A stretch of 64,000 bases of DNA. Source: a phage. The stretch's first letter is position 1; every line of letters begins with the position of its first letter. Under the pieces are notes generated by a model. That model was not told the DNA's origin. It was given only the letters and a program-made list of their open reading frames with translations, and did not search any database. Below are positions 1,429-4,962 of this stretch, piece after piece. The stretch lies in sequence record OZ413489.1; one strand, 5' to 3'. Made by a program: the position numbers and the translations under genes.

Positions 1429-1745
1429 ACACAATTCGAATGGGAGCAGATAGACTATCTGATGTCTCGTCTGCGATCTCAGTCAAAGTATCCATCAAGA
1501 ATGGTTATCAGCTGTAACCCAGATTCAGAACACATGCTTGCCAAACTGGTTAGATGGTGGTTGGACGATGAAGGGTATCCAGATCCGGAGAAATGCGGTA
1601 AGAAAAGATATTTTATCCGACGCGACGGTGAATTTATCTGGGGAGACTCTAAAGAAGAGTTGATAGAGAAATACACCACGGTTAACGGACTGGGTGTGGA
1701 GATCAAGCCAAGACCGTTGTCATTCTCGTTCATAGGCGCAACCAT
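1429..1745 (+). CDS. terL: terminase large subunit, exon 2
   Basis: In frame with exon 1 when joined at 1109/1429; gives ...VCFDEG/TQFEWEQIDYLMSRLRSQSKYPSRMVISCNPD..., with DE-to-P spacing matching T4-type terminases (recollection); ends in a split codon AU at 1745. Confidence 0.6.
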
Positions 1746-2013
1746 TAAATAATAGTGGCTTCGTGCAGAAATGCACGTCGAATAACTTCGTTAATTGCTG
1801 GAAAATCCGATTGCTAAACGGACAATCAGCAGCCAAGCCTGAATATTCAGGAAGGTTCAACGACTATCCCGAGAGGGAGTAGGGCGCAAGCTTATGGCGC
1901 TCGAAAAGCGAAGCACCCTGAAAGGGGTGGTGATATAGTCTACTCTGCATGGTAACATGCAGCAGCACGTAATGGTGCGGAGGGTGGTGTTGCGACCACC
2001 TTTGAATATAAGG
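1746..2013 (+). ncRNA. group I intron 2 (ORF-less, paralogous to intron 1)
   Basis: P AATTGCTGGAAA 1793-1804, Q AATCAGCAGC 1824-1833, R GTTCAACGACTA 1855-1866, S GATATAGTC 1932-1940; GAAA-capped hairpin 1762-1777; P9 hairpin 1945-1962 (GUAA loop); 4-bp P1 exon CCAU 1742-1745 with GUGG 1755-1758; 3' end G2013 after tail GAAUAUAAGG; alternative 3' site G2031. Confidence 0.65.
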
Positions 2014-2818
2014 ATTCGATAATCCTGTCTGTTTGAGAGACAACCCAGAATACCTTGCTTTCCTTGAAGGTCTGCCGGAACTGGAAAAAGCTCAGCTTCT
2101 TCATGGTAACTGGTTTGCAAAGCCTGAGGGTGCAAACTATTTTCAAAGATCTTTCCTTCGTGATGCCGATAGAGTACCCCTTGGATCAGTATCTTGCAGG
2201 GCATGGGATAAGGCAGGAACCGAGAGAACTTCCGGTAATAAATTTCCTGACTTTACCGCCAGTATTAAGGTAAGTAAAGATAGCGACGGCTTTTATTACC
2301 TGTCCGGTGATTATTGTCCTGAGAACGTGGATGACGGGAGGTATTCCACAGGTCTGGAAGGCAAGTTCTGTAAAAAGGCTGGTGAACGAGATGTGATCAT
2401 CAGGAAACAGGCGCAGTTCGATGGTGATGATTGCATAATCGTCTTCTCTGTGGACCCAGGTCAGGCAGGTAAGAGTGAGTTCTTAACCTCATCCAGATCC
2501 TTGCTCGCCGAAGGGTTCAGGGTTGAAGAAGACCCAATGCCTTCCAACAAATCTAAACTGACAAGGTTCTCACCTTTTGCCAATCTTGCACAACAAGGAA
2601 TGGTGAGGATTGTAAAATCCAGTTTCCATCCTGATACTCTGGAAGCATTTCTGACTGAACTTGAAAAATTCAACGGGGAAAGATCAACATTTAACAGAAA
2701 AGACGACTGGGCCGACTGTGTAGCTTCTGCGATTAATTTCCTAGAGAAAGAGGAGGTAGCACTTCCTTGTGTGATTCCATCAATCTCATCACCTTCTATG
2801 TTCAAGCGTTTTATCTAA
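2014..2818 (+). CDS. terL: terminase large subunit, exon 3 (C-terminal nuclease-domain region)
   Basis: Joined 1745/2014 the codon AU+A reads Ile and continues FDNPVCLRDNPEYLAFLEGL...; spliced product about 515 aa; stop 2816-2818. Confidence 0.6.
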
Positions 2819-2918: not shown

Positions 2919-4475
2919 GTGTCCAAAAAGAACCGCAGGAAACACAACGCCACAGCCAAAACTGTGAATAAATCTGGGAACGCAGGCGCACCAACTCATA
3001 ATGTTCGTATGAGTGAGATCGGTTCTGGCGCACTTTCCCAAATTATGGCAGAATCGCAATCTATGATGGTTGAGGAATTGCGTTGGCCTCAGCTGATTGC
3101 CACAGTGGAGACTATGAAATGTGATTCCACAGTTGCTACTGCCTTAGATACAAAATATGTTTTCATCACGAAAGCATTCAATGATTTTAAGATCCTTTAT
3201 AATGTTAAAAGTGAAGACTCTAAGAAAGCTGCCGAGCTTATAGAGTATTCTTTGCGTAATTTGGCAAACCAACAAACTCTTCGAGATATTGCAAGAAGCG
3301 CAGCTACCTTTAACGAGTATGGTTTTTCACTGTTTGAGAAAGTATACCGCAGAGAGAAAGAAGGTAAATATGCCGGGATGCTTCTTATCGATAAAATTGC
3401 ATTCCGACCTCAGGCCAGCCTGTCCAGATCAGAGCCGTTTGTTTTTGATAAGAATAGCAGAACACTGACAGGTATTTATCAGTCACCTAATGCATTTCTA
3501 AACACTCAGAATGCACGCTGGGCTGGACCTCTTGCTGCAATGCCTTCAAAAAGCTTTAATGAGCCTGAAATTTTCATCCCTGCTAAAAAGCTTATGCTCA
3601 TGACCCTGTCAGGAACAGAATCTAACCCTGCAGGTGTGTCACCGATGATAGGTTGCTACAGATCTTTCCGTGAGAAAGTTCTGATTGAAAACCTTGAGGT
3701 TGTTGGCTGTTCCAAAGACCTTGGTGGTGTGCTTGAGCTGAAAATTCCTTCCAATATTTTGAACAAGGCCAGCATTGACCCGAATTCAATGGAAGGGAGA
3801 ATGGTTGCAGATCTTATGCTTGACGCAGCAAACGCCCATAGTGGTGAGCAAAGTTTCTTTATACTTCCGTCTGATAGAGATAAGTCTGGTAAAGAGCTTT
3901 ACTCCATGACCCTGAAGGGGGTTGACGGTATGGGTAAGCAGTATTCCACTAAAGATTTGATTGATGCCCGTAAGAAGGCGATTCTTGACCGTTTCGGTGC
4001 TGGCTTTATTAACCTCGGTAACGATAACGTTGGATCCTTCTCTCTGTCTGAGTCAAAACAGTCTATCCATGGTCATTTTGTTCAGCGTGATATAGATATT
4101 ATCACTGAAGCCTTCAATAAGGATCTTATTCCACAGCTTCTGGCATTGAATGGTATCATCCTTGAAGATGATGATATGCCTAAACTGAAACCTGGTCTGA
4201 TTGAAGAAGTGGATATGGAGAGCTTCTCCAAGTTTGTCCAGAGGATCGGTGCTGTAGGTTACTTGCCAAAAACTCCTGCAGTAATTAATAAGATTCTTGA
4301 AGTAGGCGGGTTTGATGAAAGATTTGACGAGGACATGGATCAGGAAGAGCTGATGAAGCTCTTGGGCCAGGACATCAGTAGAGCTGGTGATGGAATGGCT
4401 GCAGGATCCACTGGCAACGGCACTTCTAAGATATCATCAACCAGAGATAATTCCATATCCAACATGGAAAATTAA
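2919..4475 (+). CDS. portal protein
   Basis: 518 aa, GTG start with GAGGGG RBS; immediately after terminase; size and position typical of portal. Confidence 0.65.
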   Translation: MSKKNRRKHNATAKTVNKSGNAGAPTHNVRMSEIGSGALSQIMAESQSMMVEELRWPQLIATVETMKCDSTVATALDTKYVFITKAFNDFKILYNVKSEDSKKAAELIEYSLRNLANQQTLRDIARSAATFNEYGFSLFEKVYRREKEGKYAGMLLIDKIAFRPQASLSRSEPFVFDKNSRTLTGIYQSPNAFLNTQNARWAGPLAAMPSKSFNEPEIFIPAKKLMLMTLSGTESNPAGVSPMIGCYRSFREKVLIENLEVVGCSKDLGGVLELKIPSNILNKASIDPNSMEGRMVADLMLDAANAHSGEQSFFILPSDRDKSGKELYSMTLKGVDGMGKQYSTKDLIDARKKAILDRFGAGFINLGNDNVGSFSLSESKQSIHGHFVQRDIDIITEAFNKDLIPQLLALNGIILEDDDMPKLKPGLIEEVDMESFSKFVQRIGAVGYLPKTPAVINKILEVGGFDERFDEDMDQEELMKLLGQDISRAGDGMAAGSTGNGTSKISSTRDNSISNMEN

Positions 4476-4542
4476 AAATTATCAACACAGGTGGTTGCAA
4501 AACCTCCTTTGGCGTGATAAAATAATCCACATGGGGAATAAG

Positions 4543-4962
4543 ATGCCACAGGAAGAAATGATTTCCTACGAAATCATCTACGAGCCTGACACTAAAGATG
4601 CTCACGGTGAGTGGATGAGTAAAGACACCATCAAAAAGGCTAAAGATAACTGGGACGCAGCATACGCTGCAGGCCTAGTTTCTGAAAACCTTTTCCACTT
4701 GACCTCTACAGATGCTTTCACTATTGAAAAGACGTGGATTCAAGAAGAGTTTGATGTTGTAGTAATTGGCACTGAGCAGGTCATCAAGGCTGGCTCTTGG
4801 GTTGCTAAAGTTAAATACAATAATCCTGAATTATGGGAAGCTAAGAAGGCTGGCATTGTTGGTGGCCTAAGCATTCAGGCAACAGGTAATGTTGATGAAG
4901 AAACTGGTGAAATTACCAACGTAAACTTCGGGATCAGTGTTGTAGAAGAGGGCAATGAATAA
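4543..4962 (+). CDS. head morphogenesis protein (function unknown)
   Basis: Track ORF 4387-4962 overlaps portal; ATG 4543 with GGGGA RBS chosen as start (139 aa); lies between portal and scaffold. Confidence 0.4.
   Translation: MPQEEMISYEIIYEPDTKDAHGEWMSKDTIKKAKDNWDAAYAAGLVSENLFHLTSTDAFTIEKTWIQEEFDVVVIGTEQVIKAGSWVAKVKYNNPELWEAKKAGIVGGLSIQATGNVDEETGEITNVNFGISVVEEGNE

Follow-up and report, generated by a model that had tools for sequence, protein, structure and literature searches.

Two small group I introns in the large terminase gene of an rV5-like coliphage and the placement of their splice junctions

Results

The interrupted terminase gene

The window analysed here is the whole of a 64,000-nucleotide (64 kb) stretch of phage DNA, sequence record OZ413489.1, which megablast assigns to an rV5-like coliphage of the genus Vequintavirus. 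Over positions 600–2900 megablast gives 98.9% identity to Escherichia phage RudolfGeigy and 98.4% to phage V5/rV5. The gene for the terminase large subunit (TerL) occupies positions 684–2818 of the + strand in three exons, with the i-spanin and o-spanin genes upstream and the portal gene downstream, and in the list of open reading frames (ORFs) it appears as three pieces on the same strand, 684–1112, 1462–1752 and 2033–2818. The sole Rfam matches in the whole window are two to the group I intron model RF00028, with 84 bits at 1100–1378 and 96 bits at 1736–1962 against a gathering score of 50, and both cover the full model from 1 to 253. This covariance model is one that recognises the conserved catalytic core (P3–P8, with the guanosine-binding site in P7). 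Two such matches among three ORF pieces therefore indicate that TerL is split by two group I introns. The features of the gene are as follows (lengths in nucleotides, nt).

684–1109, + strand: TerL exon 1, residues 1–142, with Walker A (GGAAGSGKS) and Walker B (MVCFDE) and ending ...DEG; lies within the ORF 684–1112
1110–1428, + strand: group I intron 1, 319 nt, ORF-less and td-like, with an in-frame TAA at its start and the terminal G1428; RF00028 match
1429–1745, + strand: TerL exon 2, from residue 143 to the second base of codon 248, beginning TQFEWEQIDYLMSRLRS; placed by frame and translation, junction residues conserved
1746–2013, + strand: group I intron 2, 268 nt, ORF-less, with an in-frame stop at 1750–1752 and the terminal G2013; RF00028 match
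2014–2818, + strand: TerL exon 3, from the third base of codon 248 to residue 515 and the stop codon; placed by translation
1104–1124, + strand: P1 helix of intron 1, the U1109–G1119 wobble pair marking the 5′ splice site (pair list of the cmscan alignment)
1740–1760, + strand: P1 helix of intron 2, the U1745–G1755 wobble pair marking the 5′ splice site (same source)
1418–1428, + strand: 3′ tail of intron 1, GAACATAAACG (RNA GAACAUAAACG)
2004–2013, + strand: 3′ tail of intron 2, GAATATAAGG (RNA GAAUAUAAGG)

The two introns are paralogues, 61% identical, that share a common P7-P9-P9.1-P9.2-tail layout. No ORF of more than 46 amino acids lies wholly inside either of them in the ORF list, and neither classes as carrying a homing endonuclease.

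The spliced protein matches Pfam Terminase_6N with 72 bits (cut-off 22) and Terminase_6C with 27 bits (cut-off 22.6). Searches of the PDB by sequence, with the TerL protein and with a 39-sequence profile, returned no terminase, and structure prediction followed by Foldseek was used instead. The fold of the AlphaFold model matches the large terminases of D6E, Sf6 (gp2) and T4 (gp17) and the ATPase domain of P74-26, with E-values from ~1e-13 (D6E) to ~1e-7 (P74-26 ATPase domain). Pfam, motifs and fold thus agree on an N-terminal Walker A/B ATPase followed by a C-terminal RNase H-like nuclease domain, as in other large terminases.

The terminase introns of the window are already known. Those of rV5 TerL (ORF64ABC) were published in 2013 (Kropinski et al., Virol J 10:76, PMC3606486), with an acknowledgement of D. 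Shub's help in locating the intron, and GenBank DQ832317 (rV5) gives 'ORF64ABC' as a three-piece join, with an HNH ORF. TerL of RudolfGeigy is likewise annotated as a three-piece join, records of the BASEL collection also use joins, and the LL12 genome announcement describes predicted introns that disrupt the TerL and DNA polymerase genes.

Intron borders

An initial annotation of the window, made from its sequence, had favoured 3′ splice sites after G1428 and G2013 on grounds of frame and of the tails shared by the two introns, had nonetheless regarded the junctions as not uniquely fixed, and had proposed comparison with intron-less relatives as a check. Both tails are present at the positions listed above and the argument from them is sound; the comparison with relatives gives exactly these two sites. 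Phages bov25_3 (MT884011.2) and Murica (KT001917.1) are without exactly 1110–1428 and 1746–2013, and naam and JohannBauhin are missing 1746–2013 only. All four borders, 1109/1110, 1428/1429, 1745/1746 and 2013/2014, are fixed by such intron-less alleles, contrary to the annotation's view that they float.

Joining 684–1109, 1429–1745 and 2014–2818 yields a protein of 515 amino acids that is 100% identical to the uninterrupted ORF of bov25_3, recovered there as a single tblastn piece, and also 100% identical to the TerL of IMG/VR locus L010 and to a protein cluster of 195 members (P0001). Exon 1 runs into exon 2 without interruption in bov25_3, Murica and L010. The peptides that span the two junctions of the spliced protein are ...CFDEGTQFEWEQIDYLMSR and ...PLSFSFIGATIFDNPVCLR. 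A shift of a junction by one base would leave the protein unchanged; this last ambiguity is removed because the P1 wobble pairs lie at U1109–G1119 and U1745–G1755 and the segments missing from the relatives end with G1428 and G2013.

Among TerL genes that encode proteins more than 99% identical, all four combinations of intron presence and absence are found, intron 2 alone occurring in L016. The 15 loci that the IMG/VR scan yielded were not enough for population statistics, and probes of the exon–intron boundaries were therefore run on GenBank phage records instead. Among the matching records 53 of 110 contain intron 1 and 24 of 106 contain intron 2, so that roughly half of the matching Vequintavirus records are without intron 1 and about three quarters without intron 2. 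This is the precise presence/absence polymorphism, with the ORF left intact, that characterises mobile introns.

Synonymous differences are found beside the insertion sites. In the flanks compared (1104–1112, 1429–1434 and 1741–1746 in the window) intron-containing alleles read GGT/ACA CAA and ACC AT/A (the slash marks the insertion site here and below), and intron-less alleles (L004 and L005) read GGC/ACG CAG and ACA AT/A. P1 pairing needs T at 1109 and C at 1743; the intron-less alleles carry C at the equivalent of 1109. Phage HdK5 combines the two patterns in its flank (ACA CAG), a mosaic suggestive of co-conversion tracts.

That the interruptions are not splicing elements at all, and that TerL is a fragmented pseudogene or is made as three separate polypeptides, might be read from the many records in which separate 'terminase' ORFs are annotated (naam, HdK5, phiWec and others). 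Such a reading can practically be dismissed: the Rfam scores of both inserts clear the group I threshold by a wide margin, sister genomes lack precisely these segments and have an intact ORF, and splicing of a homologous intron in phage CB7 has been demonstrated. The rV5-like phages concerned are, moreover, viable and are propagated as lytic phages, and a working TerL is required for DNA packaging in phages of this kind. Splicing from 1109 to 1429 and from 1745 to 2014, self-splicing included, is what we infer for the window. Taken as a whole, it is very probable that TerL of this rV5-like Vequintavirus is interrupted by two small ORF-less self-splicing group I introns of the td family and that each is excised between one defined pair of junctions, the borders being settled by near-identical intron-less phages.

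Relation to known introns

The closest counterparts are in rV5 itself, where both insertion sites are shared, nucleotide identity is ~98% and the spliced protein is 100% identical; the only difference is that intron 2 of rV5 carries an HNH homing endonuclease ORF, ~711 nt inserted in the P6 loop at the equivalent of ~1835–1853. HdK5 has an HNH ORF at the same place and, in addition, an EndoVII-like ORF at ~1329–1338 in intron 1, again unlike the window. Base 1751 is A in the window and G in RudolfGeigy, rV5 and HdK5; with either base the P1 loop keeps its in-frame stop (TAA or TGA), and a proposed P10 pair with U2016 is retained (A–U or G–U).

Intron 1 resembles the td intron of T4, with 82% identity over the 3′ 79 nt, a shared P7-P9 architecture and a shared sequence at the 5′ junction, GGGU/UAAUU, in which an in-frame UAA forms the first codon of the intron. 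The td tail, GAACAUAAUG, is followed by the exon CUACCA and lines up with that of intron 1, GAACAUAAACG. At the DNA level the 3′ region of intron 1 aligns with td up to GAACATAATG/CTACCA, a junction that gives the peptide VDVFLG/LPFNIASYA and an intron of 1016 nt, the length published for the td intron. The two differ in host gene (td in T4) and in size and content, the T4 intron having 1016 nt with I-TevI in a loop compared with 319 and 268 ORF-less nt in the window, and the guide sequence in the td P1 differs from that of the window, matching its different exon.

Splicing of the TerL intron of CB7, a Pectobacterium phage of the genus Certrevirus in the Vequintavirinae, has been shown by reverse transcription PCR (PMC7344957). 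This group I intron, too, is of the td family and lies at Walker B of the homologous TerL, as intron 1 does, and its tail, GAACAAAAAUG/GAAGGU (DNA GAACAAAAATG/GAAGGT), adjoins the exon directly as the tails in the window do. It differs in lying 6 nt upstream of the intron 1 site (GVD/EGTQF compared with DEG/TQF) and in containing an HNH ORF, an insertion that leaves it at 35 bits, below the Rfam gathering threshold. A td-like tail directly precedes the exon also in the TerL introns of two metagenomic loci. These related introns lie at:

L024, ~4340–4599: td-family TerL intron
L023, ~4295–4565: td-family TerL intron
L025 (phage CB7), 385–1347: td-family TerL intron

Over 86% of its length intron 2 is 72% identical to the bnrdE group I intron of the Bacillus phage SPbeta. 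The host gene of the SPbeta intron, in contrast to TerL, encodes a ribonucleotide reductase and belongs to a Bacillus prophage; this intron was not used as evidence on the tails. A group I intron in the large terminase gene of an unrelated siphovirus is a further precedent (PMC3606486).

Selection of the 3′ splice sites

The tails follow a consensus GAA(C/U)AUAA(n)G that ends at G1428 in intron 1 and at G2013 in intron 2. In each case the two bases that precede the terminal G show complementarity to the end of J7/9, and the pairing partners differ between introns: in td, CB7 and L023 AU faces AU, in intron 1 GU of J7/9 faces AC, and in intron 2 CU faces AG. In the window A1426–C1427 could thus pair with G1359–U1360 of J7/9, and A2011–G2012 could pair with C1943–U1944. 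From the sequence comparison, this complementarity would represent P9.0 with covariation. A P10 helix of three base pairs (bp) is also possible for both introns and in the same register, formed in intron 1 by A1429–U1117, C1430–G1116 and A1431–U1115 and in intron 2 by A2014–U1753, U2015–A1752 and U2016–A1751.

The 5′ splice site of each intron lies after the U of the P1 wobble pair (U1109–G1119 or U1745–G1755), and the 3′ splice site after the terminal G (omega-G) of the conserved tail, G1428 or G2013. The omega-G would presumably be placed by the 2-bp P9.0 with J7/9 together with the 3-bp P10 with the first exon bases. The ligated mRNA would then encode the 515-residue TerL found in the intron-less sister phages.

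Complementarity in P10 was also considered as a stand-alone discriminator of 3′ sites and was rejected, since G1446 and G1449 score at least as well as G1428.

A hairpin across the 3′ junction of intron 2

Two perfect 6-bp hairpins lie at or near the 3′ junctions.

2011–2026, + strand: AGGAUU-CGAU-AAUCCU, spanning the 3′ splice site of intron 2, with 3 nt in the intron and 13 nt in the exon
1447–1461, + strand: CAGAUA-GAC-UAUCUG, 19 nt into exon 2, overlapping alternative in-frame G's named by the initial annotation

The first had been noticed in the initial annotation and does exist as a perfect stem, at 2011–2026 rather than at the 2012–2027 given there. Its parts are AGG of the intron (the putative P9.0 dinucleotide and the terminal G), AUU of the exon, and AAUCCU, the codons of N251 and P252. 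A pure secondary-structure ensemble fold of the precursor gives it −3.7 kcal/mol, with pair probabilities of 0.66–0.99.

The stem might be a functional RNA element that delays or regulates exon ligation by hiding the terminal G, P9.0 and P10. It does cover the nucleotides that these interactions require, it is perfect and of the predicted stability just given, and it is unchanged in all carriers of intron 2 examined, an identity that leaves no variation for covariation testing. Hairpins of this kind are common, however: the 64 kb window contains 169 perfect 6-bp hairpins with loops of 3–8 nt, a density of 0.0026 per nt. No equivalent is seen in intron 1, td, CB7, L023 or L024. The AGG on the intron side is accounted for by the terminal G and the covariation proposed for P9.0. 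On the exon side, the sequence is explained by coding because it encodes residues of the series I, F, D, N and P, the last three of them nearly invariant, and it is unchanged in intron-less alleles. A regulatory role for the hairpin therefore seems unlikely, with only a small chance of being right.

The initial annotation had further suggested that exon sequence was co-opted into the structure of the intron. This is not supported: alleles that never had the intron show the very same exon arm of the stem (ATTCGATAATCCT), and the exon has thus not been reshaped to fit the intron.

A link of the second hairpin, 1447–1461, to intron 1 was likewise rejected. It is not conserved, because a synonymous TAT>TAC change breaks the stem, both in HdK5, which carries intron 1, and in the intron-less bov25_3.

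Alternative 3′ sites and the N-P motifs

A number of points weigh against removal of each intron at a single pair of junctions. The proposed P10 is not discriminating on its own, as G1446 and G1449 permit P10 runs of 5 bp when wobble pairs are included, and the CA that precedes G1449 could pair with UG of J7/9. In the related intron L024 only one of the two P9.0 pairs can form. The predicted hairpin at 2011–2026 would tie up the nucleotides of P9.0 and P10 as well as the terminal G, and there is a small residual chance that it alters the kinetics of the second splicing step. A literature search for complementary DNA, RNA-seq or splicing data on Vequintavirus found only papers on Certrevirus.

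These points bear most directly on the suggestion, made in the initial annotation, that other in-frame G's are used as alternative 3′ sites, namely G2031 for intron 2 and G1443, G1446, G1449 or G1461 for intron 1. If they were sometimes used, shorter TerL isoforms would result, one of them with the second DNP only. All of the listed G's are in frame, as had been said, although the list was incomplete, G1464, G1473 and G2037 being in frame too. A site after G2031 drops FDNPVC and yields GATILRDNPEYL, leaving TI-LR-DNP in a form that resembles TI-F-DNP, and at the intron 1 junction G1446 and G1449 have the formal P10 potential, and G1449 the P9.0-like dinucleotide, noted above. The number of candidates is nevertheless what chance provides: about one in four in-frame positions is a G, and the four in-frame G's within 33 nt after 1428 and the two within 24 nt after 2013 are about as many as expected.

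The cost to the protein was judged from an alignment of 95 sequences, the query and 94 homologues of 45–100% identity, in which the following residues near the junctions stand out.

D140 and E141: each conserved in 95 of 95
F145: 90 of 95
Q149: 90 of 95
Y152: 94 of 95
D250: 94 of 95
N251: 95 of 95
P252: 93 of 95
N258: 93 of 95
P259: 85 of 95
Y261: 95 of 95
2018–2047, + strand: codons of DNPVCLRDNP, the TerL motif DNPxxxxxNP(xY), from these counts

Use of G2031 would delete D250, N251 and P252 and remove an entire predicted helix (252–257), and the alternatives for intron 1 would remove F145, Q149 or Y152 just past Walker B. No homologue has such a gap, there being none at either junction in the 95 sequences or in proteins at 30–35% identity. 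The intron-less sister phages make the long form only, and in every related intron examined the td-family tail ends at the equivalent of G1428 or G2013. With nearly invariant residues at stake, use of the alternative sites is very improbable. We give equally little weight to a combined scenario in which the hairpin at 2011–2026 and the P10-competent cryptic G1449 allow regulated or erroneous choice of the 3′ site at a low level, giving a minor TerL variant or timing the production of TerL to late infection. The hairpin and the additional in-frame G's are chance or coding by-products and not signs of alternative splicing. The initial annotation was right that simple rules leave the 3′ candidates open; the comparative sequence data settle it in favour of G1428 and G2013.

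Splicing after G1428 and G2013 gives ...GATIFDNPVCLRDNPEYL..., in which DNP occurs at residues 250–252 (nt 2018–2026) and again at 257–259 (nt 2039–2047), as had been noted. Its description as a duplicated motif is not borne out: what is conserved is a pair of N-P motifs, and the second D, residue 257, falls at a variable position, occupied in the 95 sequences by N in 48, S in 14 and A in 12, with D rare. The DN...NPxY spacing persists at 30–35% identity, for example in TIDDNPPLMKSNPQY and KVTDNYTLMRSNPQY. On the alignment, the two DNPs are part of a family-wide motif, DNPxxxxxNPxY, and no duplication, D257 being specific to the lineage. In the AlphaFold model (39-sequence alignment, mean predicted local distance difference test score 90.1) a strand at 239–246, the last of the ATPase domain, is followed by helices at 252–257 and 259–266, so that each N-P pair begins a short helix. 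It would seem likely from the model that these helices form a helical lid or linker after the ATPase core.

Neighbouring features and database records

Between TerL and the portal gene, at 2868–2895 of the window, lies a GC-rich hairpin with a run of T after it (AGCCCTCTGACGAGGGCTATTTTGTT), which matches a rho-independent terminator annotated at the corresponding place in rV5, Murica and HdK5.

Many deposited genomes, those of naam, HdK5 and phiWec among them, list the TerL exons as two or three separate 'terminase' or 'hypothetical' coding sequences, and one record calls the o-spanin gene 'putative large terminase subunit'; all of these are annotation errors. The TerL locus of this E. coli Vequintavirus is found, introns included, at ~97% nucleotide identity in eighteen GenBank records of the MG0656xx series that are named 'Campylobacter phage' and give Campylobacter jejuni as host; the host or organism labels of these eighteen look doubtful.

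Discussion

Intron 1 is inserted just past Walker B (DEG/TQF) and intron 2 just ahead of the invariant DNP (ATI/FDNP). Introns of the td family with the tail GAACAUAAUG or close variants of it occupy at least four different positions in TerL, these two together with YQG/IQISNIFYDE in L024 and the D/E of Walker B in CB7 and L023. The region of Walker B is thus a recurrent target for introns, and the insertion sites there lie only a few codons apart.

The Walker A motif is also affected. TerL homologues of 659–864 amino acids carry inserts of 149–363 amino acids in the Walker A loop. In five of these homologues (P0037, P0047, P0064, P0077 and P0093) the insert follows GGAAG and has intein-like ends, beginning with Cys and ending in Asn ahead of a Ser. 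In three others (P0084, P0088 and P0119) it follows GK, begins with V or A and ends in HN before T or S, and all three have precomputed Pfam matches to homing endonuclease/LAGLIDADG families. All three of the most conserved ATPase motifs of this TerL family host selfish elements.

The meaning of the result is mostly one of annotation, as the junctions 1109/1429 and 1745/2014 permit a correct TerL join. The presence and absence of the introns among near-identical phages could, in addition, serve studies of intron homing. With introns after Walker B and before the DNP, and inteins in Walker A of homologous TerLs, the locus is a textbook example of an essential gene whose most conserved codons are targeted by mobile elements.

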